Below are positions 9,081 to 46,802 of a stretch of DNA of 46,802 nucleotides, in pieces; the stretch's first letter is position 1; every line of letters begins with the position of its first letter. The position numbers and the translations under genes were made by a program. Source of the DNA: a virus. The notes beneath the pieces are model-generated. The model searched no databases and had not been told where the DNA came from. It saw nothing but the letters and a program-made list of their open reading frames with translations. The stretch lies in IMG/VR virus record IMGVR_UViG_3300039323_000029. One strand, 5' to 3'.

Positions 9081-10748
9081 TTAAAACGGACGCTGAATAA
9101 TCTCAACCTTCGCTCCTACCAGACCACGGAGTTCATTTTCCAGCAGGGACAGAGAGTCAGGAGCGTCATCATGGGGAACCTTGCCGGAACGGGTATAGGT
9201 CACCACCTGTTTCATAAACTCTGCGTACTGGGAATTGCGGGCATACAGAGAAGGGTCTTTGAAATAGAACTTCTTAATGATGGTATCGGACGCAAACTCA
9301 ATACGGGTTTGCTTGTTACTAATAGTCCGCTTTGTGCGGATATTGCAGTTGTACTTCCTGTCCTCCAACAACTGGGACACATCACGGGCAAAGTAGGAAC
9401 CAGCGTTGTTACTTTCAAAGGTAGCCGCAACTACCCCGTTGTCCATCAATGCCTTTGCACACTCCGGCTTCGTTACTTCTGGGGGAGAGTCATCAAATAC
9501 CACGTCCACAATGTAGACTTCATCACCGTAAACCGCAGCAATAGGCATGGCGCAATAGTCAGCACCCGTGTCCGCAGTATCGCAGACTGCAATCACACTA
9601 TCCGGGTCACGGTCAACTGGGAGTTCAAAATATCTGTTCAGGCTGGCTTCCGGGAACAACAGACCCTTTGCTTCAAAAGGTTGCTGCTGAAACTCACTTT
9701 CAAACTGCTCCGCAGACAGCATTTCACGCTGGTCACGGAAATACTTTGTGGTAAAAATACGCTTACCCTCACGGATATACTCAAAGTTACTCTCGTCAGT
9801 TTCCAGGTCAAGCGCCGGGGTTTCGATGACCTTCATACGCTTGCCTTGCTTTTTCATTTCCTCCTGCAAGCGGCCAATAGGGTCATACAGAGAATAGCGT
9901 GTACCGCAGATGACAATGGGTGTTCCTTCAATGGCACGTCCGATAATATCACCAGAAATGACTTCCCACTTATCGTCAAGCCGCTGTCTGTTCTTTGCTT
10001 CTTCACGACCTTCCACACAGTCATCCAGATACAGCATATTGGTTGCTTCGGAAAGACCTACCTGTCTTGCGTCAATGGAACGGCACATGACCGTAGGGAA
10101 ACGGGACTTATGCAGCAGGTTCAGGATTTTAGTATCTGCATTGGTCTGTACCAGTTTGCTTTCCGGGAAAATGTCATAAAAGTGGTAATCACTGGGGGTT
10201 TGCAGATATTCCAGACAGCCCAGATAGAAAGACTTAACAAGGTCATCACCTGTACCCTCCATCAGGGTAGAGCGGTCAGGATACTTGCCGGACAGCATAT
10301 TGGTGAAGTTGATACCCAACTGGGACTTGCCCGCTCTCTTAGGCATGGAAATAGAGAGGAAGTCCAGCTTTCCGTCAAGGATTTCCTGGTATGCGTCCAC
10401 ATACCGCTTGAGATAGTGACGGCGGGGCTGGTAGAACTTCTTATCCAAAGGCTTGCCGAACTCCACGGCCTGCAAGTATTCATCAAAGAAATGCGGTGCG
10501 TCAAACAGTAGGGAACGGAACAGCAGGTCATTGAACCGCTCTGCCAGAGTGAAGTCCGGCTTATCAACGGCCAGTCGCAGACCGTACCCTACCTGAGTTC
10601 TCATACTCCTGTTCCACTCATGCGCTACGGTAAAGTCTATCTTCTCATACTCTCTGCACAGGGCGAACAGGTCATTGTATGCTTCTATATCCAAAGGCCG
10701 GGACTGTATAACCTGTTCAATCCGGCCTTTCAGTGCAATGTAATTCAT
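9081..10748 (-). CDS. terL: Terminase large subunit
   Basis: 555 aa. Walker A-like SMPKRAGKS, Walker B LYLDDCVEG, C-terminal nuclease-type VCDTADTGADY. Upstream of the portal. Confidence 0.9.
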   Translation of the reverse strand: MNYIALKGRIEQVIQSRPLDIEAYNDLFALCREYEKIDFTVAHEWNRSMRTQVGYGLRLAVDKPDFTLAERFNDLLFRSLLFDAPHFFDEYLQAVEFGKPLDKKFYQPRRHYLKRYVDAYQEILDGKLDFLSISMPKRAGKSQLGINFTNMLSGKYPDRSTLMEGTGDDLVKSFYLGCLEYLQTPSDYHFYDIFPESKLVQTNADTKILNLLHKSRFPTVMCRSIDARQVGLSEATNMLYLDDCVEGREEAKNRQRLDDKWEVISGDIIGRAIEGTPIVICGTRYSLYDPIGRLQEEMKKQGKRMKVIETPALDLETDESNFEYIREGKRIFTTKYFRDQREMLSAEQFESEFQQQPFEAKGLLFPEASLNRYFELPVDRDPDSVIAVCDTADTGADYCAMPIAAVYGDEVYIVDVVFDDSPPEVTKPECAKALMDNGVVAATFESNNAGSYFARDVSQLLEDRKYNCNIRTKRTISNKQTRIEFASDTIIKKFYFKDPSLYARNSQYAEFMKQVVTYTRSGKVPHDDAPDSLSLLENELRGLVGAKVEIIQRPF

Positions 10749-10759
10749 AGTCTACCTCC

Positions 10760-10790
10760 ATAAAAATAGGGACTGCCCGTAGACAGTCCC
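10760..10790 (-). terminator. Hairpin plus U-tract element with conserved flank (copy b)
   Basis: Minus strand: GTCCAAT GGGACTG-tctacggg-CAGTCCC TATTTTTAT, then GGAGG and the terL ATG. Confidence 0.55.
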
Positions 10791-10818
10791 ATTGGACAAG
10801 GCCGTGACCTTTCACGCC

Positions 10819-11363: not shown

Positions 11364-11400
11364 GTGCCTTTTTAGATTTTGCGGATTTTTCAAGATGACA

Positions 11401-11488
11401 GGTAGAGCATTTTCATATTTTGCAATAACTTCTTATAGAAGAAGCGCTTCTAAGAAAAGTTATAGGGAAAATGTAGTTTTACTCTACC
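11401..11488. repeat. 88-bp structured element, copy R1 (paralogue of 14384-14471)
   Basis: Same block architecture as R2: GGTAGAG-N9-ATTTTnCnATAACTTCTT-hairpin-TTATAGGGAAAA-N9-ACTCTACC. Confidence 0.8.
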
Positions 11489-14357: not shown

Positions 14358-14383
14358 TGTCGTTTCCTCCTTTCTGTGAGGAA

Positions 14384-14471
14384 GGTAGAGTAAAATCGAA
14401 TTTTACTATAACTTCTTCTTAGTACACGCATACTAAGAGAAATTATAGGGAAAACGTGAAAATACTCTACC
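14384..14471. repeat. 88-bp structured element, copy R2 (paralogue of 11401-11488), with an extra ACTCTACC at 14474-14481
   Basis: Block-wise alignment with R1. On the minus strand it contains TTTTCCCTATAAT (-10-like box at 14442-14447) and the hairpin CTTAGTA-N6-TACTAAG. Confidence 0.8.
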
Positions 14472-30963: not shown

Positions 30964-30978
30964 GCGTACCTCCCACTT

Positions 30979-30999
30979 CACACCCCATAAAGGGGTGTG
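30979..30999 (-). promoter_or_regulatory. GC hairpin 12 nt downstream of VR2 (DGR target-recognition-type structure)
   Basis: CACACCCC-ataaa-GGGGTGTG. Confidence 0.6.
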
Positions 31000-31002
31000 A
31001 TT

Positions 31003-31569
31003 TTAGATTTTGAAAGCGGGACGCACACCGGGAGCGTAGGAAGCGTAGTAGTAGGTCGCAAAGCCGTCGTCGTCGACATTGGCAAAAAGCGCAGCGGAAC
31101 CCTCCACCTTGTTCTGCAACCAGTACCATTCCCACGTCCCGGTCTTGCTTCCCTGGAACGCAATGCGGTTGCGGCGGTCTTTCATAGGCTCCCACTGTTC
31201 TACGTCATCCGGCTCCTTCTCACCGTAGGGGTTGTAGCCGAAAATCTCACGCTCCGTGGGCAGGCGCAGCAGGTCACCGCTCTCAAAAGCCACCATCTTC
31301 TCACGGATTTCAGCCGGGAAGCGGTCAAGGATTTCAGTGTTGAGCGCCTTACGCAGTGCGCAGGACTTGTACCCTCCACGGTTGGAACTGGTACGGTTCA
31401 TGGAATACTCCTTACGCAGGCAGTCCACCAGAACGAAAATCATGCCGTCCTGCTCCTGCTTTACGGCCAGGGCTTCCACTTCTTCGCCGTCATTGAGGGT
31501 GAAGGTGATAACGTCACCCACGCAGTAGTGACCATCGGCCACTGCTTCGATAGTTCTAAACAACTTCAT
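31003..31569 (-). CDS. Second (remote) DGR target protein, 188 aa, with C-terminal variable ligand-binding (CLec/DUF1566-like) region
   Basis: Last 29 codons are VR2. C-terminus WEWYWLQNKVEGSAALFANVDDDGFATYYYASYAPGVRPAFKI parallels the VR1 target WFWLRDVVSAARFAYVGDSGNANSNSASLAAGVRPAFSIIG. Confidence 0.8.
   Translation of the reverse strand: MKLFRTIEAVADGHYCVGDVITFTLNDGEEVEALAVKQEQDGMIFVLVDCLRKEYSMNRTSSNRGGYKSCALRKALNTEILDRFPAEIREKMVAFESGDLLRLPTEREIFGYNPYGEKEPDDVEQWEPMKDRRNRIAFQGSKTGTWEWYWLQNKVEGSAALFANVDDDGFATYYYASYAPGVRPAFKI
31012..31098 (-). repeat. DGR variable repeat VR2
   Basis: 87-nt alignment to TR: 15 mismatches, 14 at TR adenines (coding strand) and 1 at position 79. Confidence 0.85.
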
Positions 31570-34373: not shown

Positions 34374-34400
34374 TTGACTTGAATGAGTGGAGGAAGAACC

Positions 34401-35984
34401 ATGTATGAAGAAATCAAAGAAGTAGCGCTGTATGTACGCTATTCCAGTGCCAACCAGACAGAACAATCCATTGAGGGACAGATACGTGTCTGCACGGACT
34501 TCTGCCAGCGTCACGGGTTCCGTATTGTTGAGATATACGCAGACCGGGCAACATCGGCCAGCAAGGATATTGAAAAGCGTGTAGAGTTCCTACGCATGAT
34601 AAAGGACTCCGAAAAGAAGAATTTTCAGGCCGTCATAGTCTACAAGCTGGACAGGTTTGCCCGCTCCCGCTATGACAGCGCCAACTACAAATACCGTCTG
34701 CGAAAGAATGGAGTACAGCTTATTTCGGCCACGGAGAATATCTCCAATGACCCAGAAGGTATTATCCTTGAGTCTGTGCTTGAGGGCATGGCAGAGTTTT
34801 ACAGCGCAGAACTCTCCCAGAAAATCAACCGTGGCATGAAGGAGTCGGCTTATAAGCATAACTCCATTGGTGGTGTCATTCCTCTGGGGTATAAATCGGA
34901 AGGAAAGAAACTGGTCATTGATGAAGAAACGGCTCCCATCGTCCGGCAGGCTTTTGAAATGTACGCAGAGGGTCATAGTGTTGCGGAGATATGCCGTCTG
35001 TTCAATGCCCGTGGGTATAAGACCTCCAAAGGTACACGGTTCGGAAAGAGTTCTTTCAGCAGAATGTTCCACAATGAGCGGTACATCGGAGTGTACCAAT
35101 ACCATGACTACCGGGCAGAGGACGCTATACCTGCCATCATTGATAAAAAGCTGTTCTATCAAGTGCAAGCCCGCATGAAATCAAATAACCGCAGTCCCGG
35201 CCAGCATAAGGCCAAACACTTCTACCTGCTGTCTGGCAAATTATACTGCGGTCACTGCGGTTCTAAGATGAACGCCAGTAGCAACACCACTTCCGGCTAC
35301 ACCTATTATGAGTGCTATGGAAAGAAAAACCTCCATGTAGACTGCCACAAGCGGAACCTGCGCCAAGACTTCATAGAGGACGTAGTAATCCGTGACGCTA
35401 TGTCATTGCTCACGGATGAAAATATTGAACAAATTGCAGAAGTAGCCATCCGTACCAACCTCCATGACGTGGAAGGTAACACAGATATTCCGGCCATCAA
35501 AGACAGACTACACGAAACAACGCTTTCCCTTTCCAACCTGGTCAAGGCTATTGAAAGTGGACTTGCCCCGGAAACACTGGTCAAGCGTATGGTGGAATTA
35601 GAGAAAGACAAAAAGACCCTGGAAGAAGAACTCAAGCGTGAGGAAAAGAAGGTCATCTATCTGGACAAGGAACAGGTCATCTTCTGGCTGGAACAGTTCA
35701 AAGGCGGGGATATTGAGGATGACGATTTCCGCAGACTGCTGGTGAACCTATTCGTCAACTCCGTTACGGTATGGGATGAAGAAGATGACCACTTCAAGGT
35801 CACCATAGCCTACAACCTTAGTTCTCTCAACGAAAAAACCTACCACCTCAAGAGAGGTGGTAGGCAGTCGGATTTCAACCTCAATGCACCAGCTTTCGGG
35901 ACAAATCCGACAATCCACGGAACCCTGCTATATCACACAACTACGTGCTGCATGAAGCGCCGGAACATCAATCAGGAAGTTTAA
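34401..35984 (+). CDS. int: Large serine recombinase (integrase)
   Basis: Resolvase domain ALYVRYSSANQ...DRFARS, recombinase domain, Cys-rich zinc ribbon CGHCGS...ECYGK, coiled-coil C-terminus. Confidence 0.9.
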   Translation: MYEEIKEVALYVRYSSANQTEQSIEGQIRVCTDFCQRHGFRIVEIYADRATSASKDIEKRVEFLRMIKDSEKKNFQAVIVYKLDRFARSRYDSANYKYRLRKNGVQLISATENISNDPEGIILESVLEGMAEFYSAELSQKINRGMKESAYKHNSIGGVIPLGYKSEGKKLVIDEETAPIVRQAFEMYAEGHSVAEICRLFNARGYKTSKGTRFGKSSFSRMFHNERYIGVYQYHDYRAEDAIPAIIDKKLFYQVQARMKSNNRSPGQHKAKHFYLLSGKLYCGHCGSKMNASSNTTSGYTYYECYGKKNLHVDCHKRNLRQDFIEDVVIRDAMSLLTDENIEQIAEVAIRTNLHDVEGNTDIPAIKDRLHETTLSLSNLVKAIESGLAPETLVKRMVELEKDKKTLEEELKREEKKVIYLDKEQVIFWLEQFKGGDIEDDDFRRLLVNLFVNSVTVWDEEDDHFKVTIAYNLSSLNEKTYHLKRGGRQSDFNLNAPAFGTNPTIHGTLLYHTTTCCMKRRNINQEV

Positions 35985-37491
35985 GGGTCTGGCCTGCGTA
36001 GATGGTGTTACTGGTCAGGTTATTCAGGGTCTTAATCTCCGGCCAGCGGCTACCGTTACCAAGGTTAGCCTTTGCGATACTCCACAGAGAGTCACCACGC
36101 TTCACCTTGTAGGTGACGTAGTTAGGCTCCTGCACAGTATCAGTGGCAACCACAGTACCGCCGCTCTCCGTAGTGATATAAGCGTCCTCAAAACCTGCGG
36201 CCTTGATACGGGCAAGCTGGGCTTCCGCATTGGCCTTGACACTGTAAGCGCCAGTCTGCACCTTATACAGATTGCCAATCTTCTTAACCAGTGCTTCAAA
36301 ACCCTTGCCCTGGATAGCTGCAAGCTGATTGCGGGCATTATCCAGTTTGGAGTATGCACCAACCTGTACACGGTACAGGCCGTCCGTAGCGGGCTTCTCC
36401 GGGGTCACAGTGGCATTGGCATACTTGTCATAGTAAGTCTTGCCGTAACCTGCACGTTTAGCCTGCGCCGCTTCGCTCTGGTCAGCAGGACGCTCATACT
36501 GGGTCATCACAGCGTTGGACGCTTCGGCCACAGAAGTAGCACCGTTGAGGGTGGTCATCAGGGACTTGTAGTTCTGCATTTCCTTCCACATGAAGTCAAG
36601 CTGCATACCCAGGTCACCGATAGACTTACCAACAGAACGGGCATATTCCAGAAGGGCTTCCTTGCGGCTCCAATACGTCCACTGTGCCAGACCGTAGCCT
36701 GCGCTATCCTTGATAAAATTGGTGTATGCTCCACTGTCTACGGCAGCAGTGTAGCCGTCATCGGTGTAGCCCAACTTCTTCTCATAGGTGTTTTGCAGGT
36801 TCGTGGGCTTGAAGCCGGACTCTGCGTAAATGTTTGCCATGATACCCGCCACAGCATAATCATTCAGCCCCTTACCCTTGAAGAAGTTCCAGATAGTGGA
36901 CGGGTTGTCCACAGACTCCACAGGAGCGGAAGGAGTCACAACCTCCGGGGTTTCAGGCTGTTCCGCAGCGGCCAGAATAGCGTTGACTCTCTCCGCAATC
37001 TCACCGTGACGGGAATACAGGTATTCACCGGGGCAAGCCTTGTTTGCAAACCAACGGTGAACGGTCATGTTCTGCTGGTCAACCTTGCCGATAAGGGACT
37101 TGTCCGCTTTCCACAGCAGACGCTTGATACCGTTGCGCTGGCAAATATCGGCTACCAGGGCAATCAGGGCTTCATACGCCTGGTCAGTCACCGCATAGGG
37201 GTGTTTGGTATCGCTGGCTACCTCAATGGTAATAGCCCTGCTGTCATTGGCACGGGAAGAAGTACACCAGGAACGGTCTTTTTCTTCCACGGACAGACCA
37301 ATGGAACCATCCTTACCCACTACGTAATTGGCAGAACACTGTCTGTCCGTAGTGGCAAAGTAGTCACAACCCTGCTTCGCAGTCCACTGGCCGACAATGC
37401 AGTGAATAGTGATGGTGTCAATCTTCTGGTTGCGGGGGCTGGTCTTGTTCTTCGTAATTCTGGTATAAGTTACCAGTGGGCTGTTACTCAT
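35968..37491 (-). CDS. Multidomain endolysin: amidase_2 (PGRP-type), central lysozyme-like region, 2 SPOR repeats, LysM
   Basis: ITIHCIVG...H..ACPG amidase pattern. YRVQVGAYSKLDNARNQL / YKVQTGAYSVKANAEAQL (SPOR). YKVKRGDSLWSIA...GQTLKLP (LysM). Confidence 0.85.
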   Translation of the reverse strand: MSNSPLVTYTRITKNKTSPRNQKIDTITIHCIVGQWTAKQGCDYFATTDRQCSANYVVGKDGSIGLSVEEKDRSWCTSSRANDSRAITIEVASDTKHPYAVTDQAYEALIALVADICQRNGIKRLLWKADKSLIGKVDQQNMTVHRWFANKACPGEYLYSRHGEIAERVNAILAAAEQPETPEVVTPSAPVESVDNPSTIWNFFKGKGLNDYAVAGIMANIYAESGFKPTNLQNTYEKKLGYTDDGYTAAVDSGAYTNFIKDSAGYGLAQWTYWSRKEALLEYARSVGKSIGDLGMQLDFMWKEMQNYKSLMTTLNGATSVAEASNAVMTQYERPADQSEAAQAKRAGYGKTYYDKYANATVTPEKPATDGLYRVQVGAYSKLDNARNQLAAIQGKGFEALVKKIGNLYKVQTGAYSVKANAEAQLARIKAAGFEDAYITTESGGTVVATDTVQEPNYVTYKVKRGDSLWSIAKANLGNGSRWPEIKTLNNLTSNTIYAGQTLKLPD

Positions 37492-37494
37492 AGC

Positions 37495-37758
37495 TTAGTC
37501 CTCCTTCGGGGAAATATAGGTCATGGCCTGCTTAGAGTCGGAGATACCCGCAGTAGTGGGGTCAGTGACGATACCCAGGATAGCCAGCACAGCGAACACG
37601 GCGTTCACCACGTCCAGCAGCTTGTTACCCAGGTCACCCAGGTCAAGGGTAAAGCCGAACACTGCGGCTACCACCTGTACCAGAAGGATGACGGCGGGGA
37701 TAATGGCAATCCAGAAATTCTTGTTCTTGATACGAACAGTCCAGTTAATGTTAGTCAT
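37495..37758 (-). CDS. Holin
   Basis: 87 aa, two hydrophobic helices, directly upstream of the endolysin. Confidence 0.75.
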   Translation of the reverse strand: MTNINWTVRIKNKNFWIAIIPAVILLVQVVAAVFGFTLDLGDLGNKLLDVVNAVFAVLAILGIVTDPTTAGISDSKQAMTYISPKED

Positions 37759-38193: not shown

Positions 38194-38634
38194 TTACGCC
38201 TGGTATTCCTCCCACCCAGCAGGGTAGGCTTCGGGACTCCATACGTTTCCGTCAATGGTGGAGCGATACAGCTTGCCATTATAGCTTACAATATCGCCAG
38301 TTTCGTATGCGTCAGTGGAACCAAGGGGCTGAACCCATTCAGGGTAACCATCCTCTGTCACGCCTACGGCCTTGTACAGGCTGGTAGCGGTGTCGGGTGT
38401 CCACTGTTCCGCACTGGTATGTTCCTGCAAGACCTGATAAAGCTGGGGGTCACCCACGGCGTTCATGCCATAGGAGAACACGTCCTTCTCCTTGTAGACC
38501 ACGCCCACAGAGTAGGCGGGAAATACAGAAGGGATTTCCAACATCATGTCAAGCTGGGTGTCAGCGTCCATAGTCCCTACAAAGAACTGCAAGGCTTTAC
38601 GCATTTCCAGTGCTGCTTGAGTCATTCCGCTCAT
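38194..38634 (-). CDS. Tail-fibre-associated protein with CBM5/12-like carbohydrate-binding C-terminus
   Basis: YETGDIVSYNGKLYRSTIDGNVWSPEAYPAGWEEY. Confidence 0.55.
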   Translation of the reverse strand: MSGMTQAALEMRKALQFFVGTMDADTQLDMMLEIPSVFPAYSVGVVYKEKDVFSYGMNAVGDPQLYQVLQEHTSAEQWTPDTATSLYKAVGVTEDGYPEWVQPLGSTDAYETGDIVSYNGKLYRSTIDGNVWSPEAYPAGWEEYQA

Positions 38635-38637
38635 AGC

Positions 38638-38949
38638 TTATTCCTCCTTTCCAGTCAGCAATACGGTCATGGCCTGCTCCAACTCCGCAATCCTGCGGGC
38701 GGTAGCTTCCTCCTGCTTCTCCTTTTCGGACTTTACGCCCAGGATGAACCAGGAGCGGCCACCATCCACACGGTTACTGATAAGTACCATATCCGTGTAG
38801 GTTTCAGTGGTCTTGCCATCCGTGATAGTTACGGAAGCAAGGTTGTCCTGAAATACAGAGTCCTCAATGACCCCTTCGGCAATGTAGTTATTGCCGTTCA
38901 GTTCCAGGTTTTCCAGCTTCGTACCGTTGTTCAGGGTGATAGTGTACAT
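38638..38949 (-). CDS. Hypothetical protein (103 aa)
   Basis: ORF. Its first 62 nt overlap the 3' end of the RT ORF. Confidence 0.45.
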   Translation of the reverse strand: MYTITLNNGTKLENLELNGNNYIAEGVIEDSVFQDNLASVTITDGKTTETYTDMVLISNRVDGGRSWFILGVKSEKEKQEEATARRIAELEQAMTVLLTGKEE

Positions 38950-40144
38950 TGTGGTAGACCTCCTTCTTTAGGTTGATATAAAGCGTGTCCATGTTCTCCC
39001 GCTGTTGTTTGCTCATAATACGGTAGTGATTGCGGAACCACGAACCGTACCAATCGTCAAACTCCTTTTCGGTGAGGATATGAACCAACTTCTTCATTTT
39101 CCTTCTCATGTTCGTCAACCTCTTAGGGTTGATTTTCTGTATGACCCGGCCAGTGTCGGTCAGGGCATATTGCACTTGAAGGAACCGCCACAAGCTGGAC
39201 AGCTTGCAGATACGGGTTTTGCGGGTATTTACTGTGATACCCAGTTCGTTTGCAATGGCGATAATGCCTTGCAGTAGTTCTTCAAGGAACTCTTTGTCCT
39301 CATGGATAGCATAGGAGTCATCCATGTACCGTCCATAGAACTTTACGCCCTTGACGATTTTGACATAGTTGTCAATCGGTATAGGATAGATTATCCCAGC
39401 AACCTGCGCTACCTGGTCACCGATGTTCAAGTGCTTATACATGAACTTCTCACCAGTCAGCAGGCTCCTGTCCACGTCCTGATATTCCAGGGAGTTGAAC
39501 ACCCTATCCATGCACCCGGCGTATTCTTCATCCGTCATGTAGGATACATCGACCTTAGAACGGTCAATCACCGCACGTAGGAAGTTCAACGCCCTCTCGT
39601 CATGGACATACTTTTCAAACTGCGCCATCAGGTCATCGTGCCTGATATTGTCGTAGTATTTAGAAAAGTCTATCAGCAGGATATACCCATCATTGGAACC
39701 ATGTTGACGGTAATACCTGCGCAGGTGAGTTACCAGACGCTTCCGGGCAAAGTCTATACCTTTTCCTTTAATGCTTGCGCTATTATCGTAAATAAGGTAC
39801 TTTCTCAACGCAGGGGTCAGCACTTCATCACACAATCCATGCTTTGCCACCCGGTCATGTATCTGTTCGCCTGTAATCCTGCGTACTTTCCCTCTTTCAT
39901 GCAAGGTGAACTCCGTAGAGGGCTGAAAGATAGGGTTACCTGTCAAGTGTTCCTGCTGCAAGCCAGACAGTTCAAACAGAAGGTTCATTTCAAACCGCTG
40001 TACCTGCGGTTTCCAATCACTGCCCTGTTTGGCTCTTAGAAAACTCTCATAGAGTACATTTCCGTCAAATATCTCACGCTGATAACCTCTTTCACCATTA
40101 CTGGTACTCTCGTAAGAGTGGGTGTCGTGTTTAGTATTTACCAT
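38888..40144 (-). CDS. DGR reverse transcriptase
   Basis: YGRYMDDSY (YxDD box) and LNIGDQVAQ (DGR-type I/LGxxxSQ-like motif). Directly downstream of TR. Confidence 0.9.
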   Translation of the reverse strand: MVNTKHDTHSYESTSNGERGYQREIFDGNVLYESFLRAKQGSDWKPQVQRFEMNLLFELSGLQQEHLTGNPIFQPSTEFTLHERGKVRRITGEQIHDRVAKHGLCDEVLTPALRKYLIYDNSASIKGKGIDFARKRLVTHLRRYYRQHGSNDGYILLIDFSKYYDNIRHDDLMAQFEKYVHDERALNFLRAVIDRSKVDVSYMTDEEYAGCMDRVFNSLEYQDVDRSLLTGEKFMYKHLNIGDQVAQVAGIIYPIPIDNYVKIVKGVKFYGRYMDDSYAIHEDKEFLEELLQGIIAIANELGITVNTRKTRICKLSSLWRFLQVQYALTDTGRVIQKINPKRLTNMRRKMKKLVHILTEKEFDDWYGSWFRNHYRIMSKQQRENMDTLYINLKKEVYHNVHYHPEQRYEAGKPGTERQ

Positions 40145-40192
40145 AGTGGAGGGACAATCTCTCCTTTCTCTACCCGCAGACCGCTCAAATGG

Positions 40193-40831
40193 CTATTTAA
40201 CTGCGAAATTGAAATCGGGACGCACACCGTTAGCGTTGGAAGCGTTGTTGTAGTTCGCATTGCCGTTGTTGTTGACATTGGCAAAATTAGCAGCGGAAGT
40301 AGAGATTGCCCCGGTCTTGAATTTGTTGTCTGCTTTTCTCCAACCCTTAATCAGGTTGATTTCCGTCTGTATTGCTTCACCAAACTGCAAATAGGTGTTC
40401 ACATCAACGGGTAGGGTTTCGATAGCATACTGCAATTCCTGTGCAAGGCGGTAGCACTGGCCTATGGCTTCGTCCTGGTGTATCCTTCGCTGAATGAGTT
40501 CTTCCATGCAGGTAGGGTAGATACTGTTTGCAATGAAAACCTCTTTTGTGATTTCCCGCAGACAATCTACAATGACCTGTCTTTCGTCATAGATGAACCA
40601 ATCGTCAAAGGCTTCCCACTTCAATTTCAGTCGGTCATAACGCTCCCGCTCTGCTTCGGACAGTTCAGGATACTTCCTACCGCCAAAGTGCTTCATCAGG
40701 CGCTTTTCGGCCTTTTCGTAACTGTAACCAAAGTCACGCAGAAGCAATTCGGTTATATCTTTGCGTACCTTGTACAGGTGGTGAAATACCTCAAACTGGG
40801 ACGCTTTACGTTTGTTCTTCAATACAGACAT
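40193..40831 (-). CDS. avd: Avd-like accessory variability determinant. The ORF reads on through TR.
   Basis: Helical basic protein between VR1 and TR; IANSIYPT....RRIHQDEAIGQCYRLAQELQYA resembles four-helix-bundle Avd proteins. The last ~35 codons are TR (NVNNNGNANYNNASNANGVRPDF). Confidence 0.65.
   Translation of the reverse strand: MSVLKNKRKASQFEVFHHLYKVRKDITELLLRDFGYSYEKAEKRLMKHFGGRKYPELSEAERERYDRLKLKWEAFDDWFIYDERQVIVDCLREITKEVFIANSIYPTCMEELIQRRIHQDEAIGQCYRLAQELQYAIETLPVDVNTYLQFGEAIQTEINLIKGWRKADNKFKTGAISTSAANFANVNNNGNANYNNASNANGVRPDFNFAVK
40211..40297 (-). repeat. DGR template repeat (TR)
   Basis: Contains 24 adenines on the coding strand, mostly in AAC/AAT codons. Matches VR1 and VR2 except at adenines. 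No GC hairpin downstream of it. Confidence 0.9.
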
Positions 40832-40846
40832 AGTAGTTCTCCTTTA

Positions 40847-40869
40847 CCCCACCCCATTAAGGGGTGGGG
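40847..40869 (-). promoter_or_regulatory. GC hairpin 23 nt downstream of VR1
   Basis: CCCCACCCC-attaa-GGGGTGGGG. Confidence 0.6.
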
Positions 40870-40877
40870 ATTTCCGA

Positions 40878-41768
40878 TTAACCGATAATAGAGAAAGCGG
40901 GACGCACACCGGCAGCGAGGGAAGCGGAGTTGGAGTTCGCATTGCCGCTGTCGCCGACATAGGCAAAACGAGCAGCGGATACCACGTCACGCAGCCAGAA
41001 CCAGTTGCGGTTGGAAATCATGTCAGGCCGGAAAGCGAACAACGGGAACTGGCTCTTATCCACGGTGTACAGGGCAGGGACGGTAGAACCATCGTTACCT
41101 GCACCGAACACCTTACCGCCGTAGCAGTTCTGTTCGGTCATCAGTTCCACGGTAGAGTCATACCAGGAACCGCCAGAGGGCTTACCGTTGGTCACAGCGT
41201 TGCAAAGGTACTGTCTGTGAGTCAGCACATGGGCAGAACCAAACGCCGTATTGATGGTGGTCTTAGCCTGCTCAAGACCCTCCGTGTACATCTTACTGCC
41301 CACGTACCCACCAGTGGTGATCTTGGTGTCGTTCATCACGTGGGTGTACATATTTGCGTCAGGAACCAGAGTGACGTGGTGAGTGGTCATATCCGTGTCA
41401 CCAGCCCGCAGGTAGTAGTCAAATGCAGCGATACGGTAGGTAACACCACCGATAACCCAGTAATCACCGATGTACATATCATCAAAGGTTCCGGCCTTGA
41501 TTGCCGCAAACTGCGCAGCAGTAACGGAAGTACCCAGATTGATACCACGGTAGATAGAGTTATGAGCGCCAGCGCCGCTTGCGGTCACCTTGTCCAGAAT
41601 AGTTTTGTGGGCGGTAATCAGGTCAGCCAAGTCCTTCTTGAGCGCCCCGGCAGGTACCTTCTTGAGTCCGTTGCCGTCATGGATGAACAGCATATCGGAG
41701 TCGGCCACGGCCTGCAACGCCGTGAGGTCAGCCATCTTCTTTGCATTTTCAATGGTCAGGTTTGCCAT
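40878..41768 (-). CDS. DGR target 1: receptor-binding tail fibre protein with C-terminal variable region
   Basis: ATG 41768 with an AAGGAGG RBS. Last gene of the tail-fibre block; VR1 lies in the last ~30 codons. Confidence 0.85.
   Translation of the reverse strand: MANLTIENAKKMADLTALQAVADSDMLFIHDGNGLKKVPAGALKKDLADLITAHKTILDKVTASGAGAHNSIYRGINLGTSVTAAQFAAIKAGTFDDMYIGDYWVIGGVTYRIAAFDYYLRAGDTDMTTHHVTLVPDANMYTHVMNDTKITTGGYVGSKMYTEGLEQAKTTINTAFGSAHVLTHRQYLCNAVTNGKPSGGSWYDSTVELMTEQNCYGGKVFGAGNDGSTVPALYTVDKSQFPLFAFRPDMISNRNWFWLRDVVSAARFAYVGDSGNANSNSASLAAGVRPAFSIIG
40893..40979 (-). repeat. DGR variable repeat VR1
   Basis: 87-nt alignment to TR: 15 mismatches, all at TR adenines. Confidence 0.9.
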
Positions 41769-45444: not shown

Positions 45445-46802
45445 TTAAGTAAAGCTGTAACCGTTTGCGTCACGCTGGGTTTGTACAGCGTCCGTAATGG
45501 TGCGATTGCCAATCTGCACAGTAGTCTGTTCCTTCTTGTTGGCCTGCCTGTTCATGTCATCAGCCATCTGGGTCATGGTTCCCTGTACGTACTCCGTGTA
45601 GAAATCGGCCATAGCCCTCTTGAACCCAGCGTAGCCAGGGGAGTCATCAGGTTCATCCGGCAGACCACTTCGTACCTTTTCGGCAAGGGTATCCATCCAT
45701 TCAGTGTGACGTTCCAGAGGAAGCACCGCTTCCTTTCCGGCTTCGCCACCACCCAAGAAAGAGTTACCCAGCATACCGAAAATCTGTGCGCCATCCAGAA
45801 TACCGCCCTTTGCGTTCCACGTCAGGTTAAAGCCGGACGGGTAGGAATAATCCTTACCGAACACTGTTACGGTACTCCATTTGACAGACACTTTCGGAAC
45901 CTTGATACCCAGCGTAGTCCACAGCGTACCCACTGCATTACTCCACCAGGTCTTGACGTTAGACCACCAGGTAGAAGCCTGATTTTGTACGGCAACCTTC
46001 ACAGAGAGGTTACCTACCACACCAGACCACCAGGTCTTGACGTTAGACCACCAGGTAGAAGCCTGGTTCACAACGCTGGTTGTGAAGGACTGAACTGCGC
46101 CGACCTTGCCAGACCACCAAGACTTACAATTACTCCACCACGTAAAGGAGTCGTTCTTCAAACTGGTAGTGAACTGCTGGACTGCACCAACCTTTCCGCT
46201 CCACCAAGTTTTCACGTTGTTCCACCAAGTAGTGGACTCATTCTTCACGGAAGTGGTGAACTGCTGCACGGCTCCGACCTTGCCAGACCACCAGGTCTTG
46301 ACATTGTTCCACCATACGCTGGACTGGTTGGTAACCGTGGTTGTAAACTCCTTCACAGCGCCGACCTTTCCGCTCCACCAGGTCTTAGTGTTGTTCCACC
46401 AAGTAGTGGCGTGGTTCTTCACGTTGGTAGTGAAGGACTGAACTGCACCAACCTTGTTGTCCCACCAAGTACAGACGTTAGACCACCACTCTGCGGCGGT
46501 GTTCTTCACGCCTACGGCAAACTCAACCAGGTCAACGTCCTCAAAGGCTTCCATGAGCGGGTCAAGGATATTGGTCTTAATCCAGGTGCCAATAGCCTTA
46601 AACGGCTTGAGGATACCACCCAGCAGACCTTCCATGATGAAAACGCCAATTTCCTCCATCACGGTAGACGGAGAGTGGATACCGAACAAGTCTTTGAACC
46701 ACTGAACAAAGGGGTCAACGATGTTGGTTTTAATCCAGCCACCGGGGTCTGCAAAGAACTCCGTGAGTCCCTTTGTGAAGCCTGCCCACATATCGGCTCC
46801 GG
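45445..46802 (-). CDS. Tape measure protein, 3' portion (continuation of 2110->1 across the circular junction)
   Basis: The track ORF 45445..46791 begins MWAGFTKGLTEFF, which is internal to the ORF read from 2110; same frame. Confidence 0.85.
   Translation of the reverse strand, partial: GADMWAGFTKGLTEFFADPGGWIKTNIVDPFVQWFKDLFGIHSPSTVMEEIGVFIMEGLLGGILKPFKAIGTWIKTNILDPLMEAFEDVDLVEFAVGVKNTAAEWWSNVCTWWDNKVGAVQSFTTNVKNHATTWWNNTKTWWSGKVGAVKEFTTTVTNQSSVWWNNVKTWWSGKVGAVQQFTTSVKNESTTWWNNVKTWWSGKVGAVQQFTTSLKNDSFTWWSNCKSWWSGKVGAVQSFTTSVVNQASTWWSNVKTWWSGVVGNLSVKVAVQNQASTWWSNVKTWWSNAVGTLWTTLGIKVPKVSVKWSTVTVFGKDYSYPSGFNLTWNAKGGILDGAQIFGMLGNSFLGGGEAGKEAVLPLERHTEWMDTLAEKVRSGLPDEPDDSPGYAGFKRAMADFYTEYVQGTMTQMADDMNRQANKKEQTTVQIGNRTITDAVQTQRDANGYSFT
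45919..46515 (-). repeat. About 6.5 tandem 29-aa (87-nt) Trp-rich repeats within the tape measure
   Basis: TTxVKNxxxxWWxNxKTWWSGKVGAVxxF repeated in the ORF translation. Confidence 0.9.
46704..46802. repeat. Terminal direct repeat, identical to 1-99
   Basis: Base-by-base comparison. Confidence 0.95.

Follow-up and report, generated by a model that had tools for sequence, protein, structure and literature searches.

Evidence for a complete diversity-generating retroelement in a temperate phage of Lachnospiraceae-type Bacillota, with an accessory reading frame that continues through the template repeat

Results

Organization of the locus

The window analyzed here is a stretch of 46,802 nucleotides from IMG/VR virus record IMGVR_UViG_3300039323_000029. 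It is a circular contig of ~46.7 kb, with positions 1-99 identical to positions 46704-46802 (an exact 99-nt repeat), and it probably represents a complete phage genome, assembled circularly. Between its tail and tail-fiber genes and its holin and endolysin genes lies what is very probably a complete diversity-generating retroelement (DGR), the subject of this report, with a template repeat (TR), the gene for a reverse transcriptase (RT), and variable repeats (VRs) at the ends of two target genes.

Read along the minus strand, which carries all of its parts, the cassette opens with target gene 1 (40878-41768), a 296-aa open reading frame (ORF) that is the last gene of the tail-fiber module and whose ATG follows an AAGGAGG ribosome-binding site. 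VR1 (40893-40979) encodes the C-terminal ~30 residues of its product; the variable positions lie within 40912-40970, and beyond them are a GC-rich element (40898-40910) resembling an initiation of mutagenic homing (IMH) site and then a fixed C at 40897. Nine nucleotides past the target stop codon there is a DNA hairpin (40847-40869) with a 9-bp GC stem (CCCCACCCC/GGGGTGGGG) and the 5-nt loop TTAAT. Next comes an accessory-protein ORF of 212 aa (40193-40831), made up of a core of ~172-177 aa that ends at KGWRKADNKF, then a short linker, and finally the TR translated in frame. The TR itself (40211-40297) contains 24 adenines and has an IMH*-like 3' end (40216-40228) followed by an A at 40215, and the RT gene (38888-40144, 418 aa) completes the cassette. 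This order (target ORF, VR1, GC hairpin, Avd-like ORF, TR, RT) had been proposed in an earlier sequence-only reading of this DNA and is borne out by the ORFs and the sequence. A third copy of the repeat, VR2 (31012-31098), lies on the same strand at the 3' end of target gene 2 (31003-31569, 188 aa) and is followed by its own hairpin (30978-31000; stem (T)CACACCCC/GGGGTGTG(A), loop TTTAT). A repeat search and a 13-mer search each return these three repeat copies.

Differences between the repeats

Between TR and VR1 there are 15 mismatches over 87 nt, and each falls at one of the 24 TR adenines; these adenines become C, G, or T in VR1, and no C, G, or T of the TR is changed (hypergeometric P = 5e-11 for adenine-only mismatches). 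VR2 differs from the TR at 14 adenines (P = 5e-9) and at one further site, a T-to-G change at TR position 40289. The 15 adenine differences counted in the sequence-only reading are therefore confirmed, and its statement that nothing outside adenines had changed holds for VR1 but not for VR2. Mismatches spread over all four bases, the pattern that it had named as speaking against a DGR, were found in neither comparison, with 15 of 15 in VR1 and 14 of 15 in VR2 falling at adenines. AAC and AAT codons hold 22 of the 24 TR adenines, in line with its remark that most of them lie in such codons, and the invariant 3' end that it described as common to all repeats, GGTGTGCGTCCCG, has exactly three occurrences in the window, one in each of TR, VR1, and VR2, where chance would give 0.06.

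We compared the cassette with 80 related viral loci, of which 78 are complete, and 17 genome loci (numbered with an L below); prophages related to the window phage are found in Oribacterium, Dorea, Moryella, Eubacteriaceae, and Lachnospiraceae genomes. The viral loci gave 61 distinct TR/VR pairs, and 14 further genome loci brought the number to ~75. Across the 61 pairs, 1010 of 1586 TR-adenine positions differ (64%) compared with 74 of 3904 other positions (1.9%), the latter mostly at both ends of the repeat. Where the TRs of different lineages are polymorphic at non-adenine positions, mostly silently, the cognate VR has the same base, and several polymorphic TR columns, up to column 82, show zero TR/VR mismatch; the 14 further genome loci repeat both the adenine bias and the mirroring of TR variants. 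The mirroring of TR polymorphisms in cognate VRs is predicted by continuing one-way copying from TR to VR. The TR adenines themselves are kept among the TRs of relatives and are variable in the VRs. Information appears, from these comparisons, to flow in one direction, from TR to VR.

Signs of recent change come from locus L001, which is 98.9% identical to the window over 5 kb and has 17 of its 57 differences within 60 nt of VR1: 16 of these 17 are at TR-adenine positions, and the remaining one (40971) mirrors a TR change at 40289. Among 34 homologues of target 1 that are ~85% identical overall, variation is confined to the segment SAAxFAxVxxxGxAxxxxASxAxGVRPAF. These comparisons suggest that the DGR is active at the population level and that it is functional, or was so very recently, in the window phage.

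Transfer boundary and hairpins after the variable repeats

Both VR1 and VR2 carry C where the TR has A at 40215, a difference that the sequence-only reading thought might separate IMH from IMH*. Among the relatives, all 61 TRs have A at this position and all 61 VRs have C, whereas the other TR adenines give mixed bases in the VRs. Polymorphisms up to two bases 5' of 40215 are mirrored, and the four bases on its 3' side have rare variants that are not; mirroring stops around 40215, so that the transfer boundary would lie at the end of GGTGTGCGTCCCG. The A/C difference appears to behave like the IMH/IMH* distinction, as had been suggested.

The VRs of the window and of related loci are followed by a GC stem of 8-9 bp with a 5-nt loop (YTTRT). 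The stem sequence varies by lineage with many compensatory changes (for example CCCCACCCC, CTGCACCCC, TGCGACCC, and TTCGCCCC), and the TR, unlike the VRs, has no such GC hairpin. Known phage DGR hairpins have GC stems of 7-10 bp and 4-nt GRNA loops and lie 4-34 bp from the VR (PMC3240598; Guo et al. 2011); with its 5-nt loop, the window hairpin falls outside that consensus and can be described as a variant of it.

Two individual loci stand out in this region. The VR at 9852 of L089 (Oribacterium sp. HCP28S3_H8) is the sole VR of ~75 to keep A (GAT, Asp) at the equivalent of 40215. The VR1 hairpins at L024:9852-9925 and L004:9544-9615 have an identical stem and a reverse-complemented loop (ACAAG and CTTGT), a difference that resembles the flipping of a palindrome and is of note since loop sequence matters in Bordetella phage BPP-1.

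Reverse transcriptase

The 418-aa ORF contains both motifs that had been read in it, YMDD and IGDQVAQ. It matches Pfam RVT_1 (E = 2.5e-12) and phrog_1423 (E = 6e-57), and its best match in PDB is 8ub7, the bRT of the BPP-1 DGR (E = 1.6e-8, compared with 1.2e-3 for group II RTs). In a BLASTP comparison it is collinear with BPP-1 Brt (E = 1e-12, 23% identity), with IGDQVAQ aligned to IGSLTSQ. The DGR RT motif I/L/V-G-x3-S-Q takes the form I-G-x4-Q in the window RT, with A replacing S, and a 39-aa insertion precedes this IGxxxxQ motif. On its sequence, this RT, encoded adjacent to the TR, can be assigned to the DGR type.

Target proteins

The VR lies at the C-terminus of both target ORFs. Target 1 has a match to Pfam DUF6273 (PF19789) at residues 252-293 (E = 5e-4) whose 20.3 bits are below the gathering cut-off of 23.5, and several of its homologues have a precomputed PF19789 match. 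Target 2 consists of a single DUF6273 domain and scores above the same cut-off (38.8 bits, E = 1.1e-9), with a further match to phrog_21980 (E = 3e-28). DUF6273 has been reported to be C-type-lectin-like (PMC10743442). The gene for target 2 is 9.2 kb from the cassette, in the replication and recombination module, directly downstream of a helicase gene and near the serine integrase. A second VR was sought in the 14 viral loci with enough flanking sequence and is present in L002 only; within 10 kb of the cassette one was found only in the closest relatives, L002, L084, and L091.

Accessory protein

Homologues of the accessory protein form a large family (~1,214 at 90% clustering and 718 at 50% clustering). 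Its AlphaFold model (mean pLDDT 74.8) has four long helices and an insertion. In Foldseek, local matches to this model include 2rld_B (probability 0.98) and 2gsc_B (0.93) at TM 0.64-0.66, and the top match in BFVD is an 'Avd-like protein' (probability 1.0, TM 0.70), all with weak E-values (>= 0.14). We take 2rld and 2gsc to be structural relatives of Avd (Alayyoubi et al. 2013). The family also aligns with the annotated Avd of Roseburia phage Shimadzu (orf23) in hhalign, with a probability of 98.3% and E = 2e-14.

The TR-encoded tail (40193-40300) is an annotation trap, as it makes the accessory protein match the target family phrog_21980 (E = 3e-6). In L094 (Moryella indoligenes DSM 19659, ~10001-10800) the cassette is decayed: what comes directly after the accessory gene is the RT's C-terminal portion, the TR and the RT N-terminus being deleted.

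Pairing around the template repeat

To examine the RNA, we aligned 41 relatives over a stretch that starts at the 3' end of the TR and enters the RT gene, and counted the pairs of a longer-range duplex in 38 sequences. A stem-loop directly 3' of the TR, P1 (40173-40207), has a 7-bp stem (40201-40207/40173-40179) in which every one of the 7 pairs has compensatory changes and pairing holds in 98.3% of cells; its loop contains the accessory stop codon TAG at 40193-40195. A second hairpin, P3 (40085-40123), lies inside RT codons ~8-20 and is capped by a UACG tetraloop (40111-40114), with 40115-40123 pairing with 40107-40110 and 40085-40088 and compensatory changes at 7 of 8 pairs; the window copy of P3 carries an extra inserted sub-hairpin. 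For P1 and P3 together, 98.1% of cells are paired compared with 37-47% in slid controls, and 16 of 18 pairs change on both sides. The TR is bracketed by a 12-bp duplex whose 5' strand, GGGGCAAUCUCU (40301-40312), encodes the linker residues G-A-I-S and whose 3' strand (40151-40162) overlaps the RT ribosome-binding site GAAAGGAGAG (40159-40168), as assigned with RNAalifold and pair counts over 40151-40168. The duplex has 99.3% canonical pairs, compared with 55-64% when the partner is slid, and compensatory changes in five lineages (L006, L013, L022, L065, and L069). The consensus fold also joins the GAAA of the RT ribosome-binding-site region to UUUC at 40211-40214; these UUUC/GAAA pairs, like the CC/GG pairs, are invariant and hence without covariation support. 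A local hairpin, P2 (40148-40164), predicted by RNAalifold, showed no covariation and was dropped for the covarying duplex with 40301-40312.

This pattern of pairing points to a structured template RNA that would surround the TR with a flanking duplex and downstream stem-loops. This RNA takes in the stop codon of the accessory ORF and the RT ribosome-binding site and extends into the RT coding region. In BPP-1, a TR-flanking 'cPRT Stop' duplex and a tetraloop-capped Avd-binding stem-loop have been described and were predicted in 207 other DGRs, with UNCG or GNRA tetraloops capping the Avd-binding stem-loop (Handa et al., bioRxiv 10.1101/2023.10.23.563531). The window resembles these elements in having a TR-flanking duplex and, downstream of the TR, a ~9-bp stem-loop with a bulge and a UNCG tetraloop. 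It differs in the overlap of its elements with coding sequence and with the RT ribosome-binding site; the assignment is by analogy only. The RNA elements of the window also fit the requirement of BPP-1 for 20 nt or more of avd together with almost all of the spacer.

Reading of the accessory frame through the template repeat

The sequence-only reading had pointed out as an oddity that no stop codon separates the Avd-like ORF from the TR. This is correct, and the TR is read in the frame of the VRs as far as the TAG at 40193-40195. Whether relatives end the ORF before the TR, a check that it had proposed, has a divided answer: the ORF continues through the TR in the VR frame in 77 of the 78 complete viral loci, and in at least five lineages it ends before the TR or is out of frame. 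These unfused loci are L051, L092/L093/L095, L097, L099, and L100 (L093 being a Dorea ammoniilytica isolate), and all of them keep adenine-only TR/VR differences and mirrored TR variants. L092 and L093 have identical TRs, that of L095 has two differences, and the VRs of all three are different. At least five unfused lineages keep DGR-patterned TR/VR pairs, so fusion is not required. Unfused variants read a TGA inside AUCUCUGAU in another frame. Among more distant representatives of the accessory family (35-57% identity), 13 of 77 have a TR-type tail. The tail of the window protein has an AlphaFold pLDDT below 50 and is predicted to be disordered. In L021, L045, L086, and L098, the stop after the TR is lost and the ORF extends to the RT start. 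No description of an accessory ORF reading through the TR was found in full-text literature searching, which cannot prove that none exists.

Surroundings of the cassette and other observations

Downstream of the cassette comes an ORF of 103 aa (38638-38949, without a family match) that shares 62 nt (38888-38949) with the 3' end of the RT ORF; a gene for a 146-aa CBM5/12 protein (38194-38634) follows it. The holin/endolysin pair is at 37495-37758 and 35968-37491, and a large serine recombinase is encoded at 34383-35984. No Rfam family was found in the whole window at gathering thresholds, and blastn of the cassette against deposited phages matched only a tail-fiber segment of Lactobacillus phage JCL1032.

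Elsewhere in the window, tandem 87-nt (29-aa) Trp-rich repeats (..TWWSGKVGAVQxFTTSVxN..) occupy 45927-46503 within an ORF (45445-46791, minus strand) of the tail module that spans the circular junction, has no Pfam match, and probably encodes the tape-measure protein. Two pairs of 35-39-nt direct repeats, 77-79% identical and 2983 nt apart, at 11400-11488 and 14383-14471, may be regulatory or intergenic elements. Some of the relatives (L084, L086, L091, L095, and L096) are phage-sized or short contigs in metagenome-assembled genomes labelled Bacteroidaceae, Spirochaetales, Bacteroides, and Akkermansia, probably through mis-binning.

Discussion

We regard it as very probable that the window carries a complete DGR of a temperate phage of Lachnospiraceae-type Bacillota, and one that is functional or was so very recently. 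The sequence-only interpretation of the locus as a DGR is upheld by the adenine-specific differences, the TR-to-VR transfer, the bRT-like RT, the hairpins, and the IMH/IMH* difference. The adenine-specific pattern is shown by the sequences compared here, as are the direction in which sequence passes between repeats, the point at which transfer ends, the hairpins, and the RNA pairings; the priming of cDNA and the roles of the RNA elements and of the accessory protein are carried over by analogy from the Bordetella phage BPP-1 system and would be as they are there. In outline, RNA transcribed from the accessory gene's 3' end across the TR and into the start of the RT gene would fold into the template RNA, with the 12-bp duplex bracketing the TR, P1 following it, and the UACG-capped hairpin placed among the RT codons. 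Acting with the helical accessory protein, the RT would copy the TR into cDNA and misincorporate opposite adenines. The cDNA, with its 3' boundary within GGTGTGCGTCCCG, would then replace VR1 in the tail-fiber-module gene and VR2 in the small remote gene, rewriting the tips of two proteins, and the target sites would be marked by the fixed C and the nearby downstream GC hairpin.

Several observations weigh against parts of this reading. Activity in this genome is deduced from comparison with relatives and not from reads. The accessory protein and 66 members of its family have no match to Pfam bAvd (PF22296; Pfam E up to 10) or to NCBIfam NF033474 (DivGenRetAVD), and hhalign of the family against a 24-member bAvd alignment gives a probability of 0.2%; the BPP-1 Avd control matches both bAvd models (E = 7e-36 and 6e-31). 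The pI of the accessory protein, 7.7 for the core and 8.3 at full length, is not strongly basic, and Avds have a mean pI of 9.5 ± 0.7 (Wu et al. 2018, PMC5758913). For target 1, the AlphaFold model built from the 34-sequence alignment has a pLDDT of 32.7 and is unusable as a guide to the fold. The view that the fusion of the accessory ORF to the TR is a by-product also meets difficulties, as every linker-length variant among the fused relatives differs by a multiple of three and all 13 of the distant TR tails use the VR frame though a second TR frame is open. This conservation of frame exceeds what pure neutrality predicts.

For the accessory protein, phmmer and profile searches of PDB sequences also found nothing, and neither did hhalign to BPP-1 Avd. 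The label 'Avd-like' given in the sequence-only reading is thus supported by position and by predicted fold but not by any Avd sequence model, although those models detect the BPP-1 control. We describe the protein as Avd-like on its position, its predicted fold, and its homology to the Shimadzu Avd, and not as a demonstrated member of the bAvd family.

The reading of the accessory frame through the TR is most likely a tolerated consequence of packing, because the TR abuts the accessory gene and its VR frame has no stop by construction. The tail is dispensable, and in the linker and stop region the constraint acts on RNA rather than on protein; this constraint, which covers the linker and the residues after GVRPDF, accounts for a large part of the conservation that the fused ORF seems to show. 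One alternative is that reading through serves as a regulatory device. Folding of the RNA engages the RT ribosome-binding site in pairing, so a coupling or switch role is conceivable: ribosomes crossing the duplex strand, the TR, and P1 would unfold the RNA and free the site, and this would couple accessory synthesis, RT translation, and template use or make them mutually exclusive. Translation through these elements would toggle the RNA between an mRNA state, melted and with RT made, and a template state, folded and with the RT site sequestered. In favor of such a device, GAAAGGAGAG is paired with the linker strand and the TR 3' end in the consensus fold, the accessory stop codon lies in the P1 loop, the fused state predominates among the viral loci with linker indels in frame, and the TR tails of distant representatives are always in the VR frame. 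Set against this are the unfused lineages, at least five in number, whose TR/VR pairs are DGR-patterned and apparently diversifying, and the UUUC/GAAA and CC/GG pairs, which never vary and so offer no covariation. The unfused loci do not provide a clean test, since in most of them ribosomes would still reach the end of the duplex strand before the TGA in AUCUCUGAU. On balance we consider both the coupling and the switch between two states unlikely. If true, the switch would explain why read-through is kept in ~90% of the lineage though it is not strictly required.

It is considerably less probable that the Asn-rich tail encoded by the TR functions as a peptide, for example by binding the RT, the RNA, or the target or by acting as a degron. 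Nearly all close relatives have the tail, as do the 13 distant representatives, but its sequence is fully explained by the template role and the frame shared with the VRs, covariation in the residues after GVRPDF follows the P1 RNA stem and not the protein, and the tail is predicted to be disordered. Several lineages without the tail keep working-looking DGRs, and in the four loci that have lost the stop after the TR it simply runs on. We give an equally small chance to the repeats being a fossil, a record of past mutagenic homing by a system that no longer works in this genome. Such a reading is compatible with the comparative nature of the evidence for activity, and related two-VR Faecalibacterium phages showed no read-level activity in culture (PMC11792537). 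It fits poorly with the intact state of all ORFs and motifs, the conservation of TR adenines, and the 16 TR-adenine positions at which VR1 differs in the 98.9%-identical locus, where a TR point change has also been copied to VR1. That the locus is not a DGR at all, and instead combines paralogous C-terminal segments under diversifying selection or gene conversion with an RT of group II intron, retron, or defense origin, can be set aside as extremely improbable: the best sub-threshold NCBIfam match of the RT is indeed a group II RT/maturase (E = 5.8e-15, 55 bits against a cut-off of 300), but a bona fide Brt control gives the same kind of match, the best solved structure is bRT, there is no Rfam intron or retron RNA in the window, the mismatches are adenine-specific and directional, and one repeat retains all its adenines outside any lectin-type domain.

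As a complete DGR, the cassette closely resembles that of BPP-1 (mtd-avd-TR-brt; architecture B1 of Wu et al. 2018, PMC5758913), with which it shares the order of target, accessory gene, TR, and RT, the VR at the 3' end of a tail-module gene, adenine-specific mutagenesis, a GC hairpin after the VR, and a GC-rich IMH-type element with a TR/VR difference marking the transfer boundary. The two systems also have in common a TR directly against the accessory gene and a template RNA that depends on sequence flanking the TR on both sides; the avd coding sequence of BPP-1 ends exactly at the TR start, and in this respect the window arrangement differs only by the missing stop. Other differences are that the window accessory protein is ~50 aa longer, near-neutral, and undetected by bAvd models, that its hairpin loop is of 5 nt (YTTRT) and not the 4-nt GRNA, that it has a second, remote target, and that its TR-RT spacer is ~65 nt compared with 144 nt. 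The short spacer accounts for the overlap of the RNA elements with the accessory stop codon and the RT coding region.

Phages of gut Bacillota with two targets provide a second comparison. Pairs of large and small DUF6273 targets are known in Faecalibacterium phages Lelie/Toutatis and CP11, and in Roseburia phage Shimadzu (LR596903) the targets are a tail protein and a second protein whose function is unknown (PMC11792537). Like these systems, the window has a large target in the structural module and a small one, both DUF6273 with a C-terminal VR, and the hosts are gut Clostridia. It differs in having no DNA similarity to them (among deposited phages, the JCL1032 segment excepted), and the Shimadzu Avd is shorter (136 aa), lacks the ~45-aa insertion, stops ~390 nt before the RT, and is unfused to the TR.

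A DGR as such is to be expected in this setting, as Bacillota gut phages are rich in DGRs and the pairing of large and small DUF6273 targets has already been described. The accessory family is another matter, being large and invisible to current Avd models, so that DGR scanners relying on those models would call such cassettes Avd-less; the TR-encoded tail, in turn, makes accessory proteins match target-protein families and can mislead annotation. With its covariation-supported template RNA, the cassette may serve as a compact natural system for learning how translation and reverse transcription share one RNA, and the natural fused and unfused variants of the accessory gene and TR would be ready-made controls.

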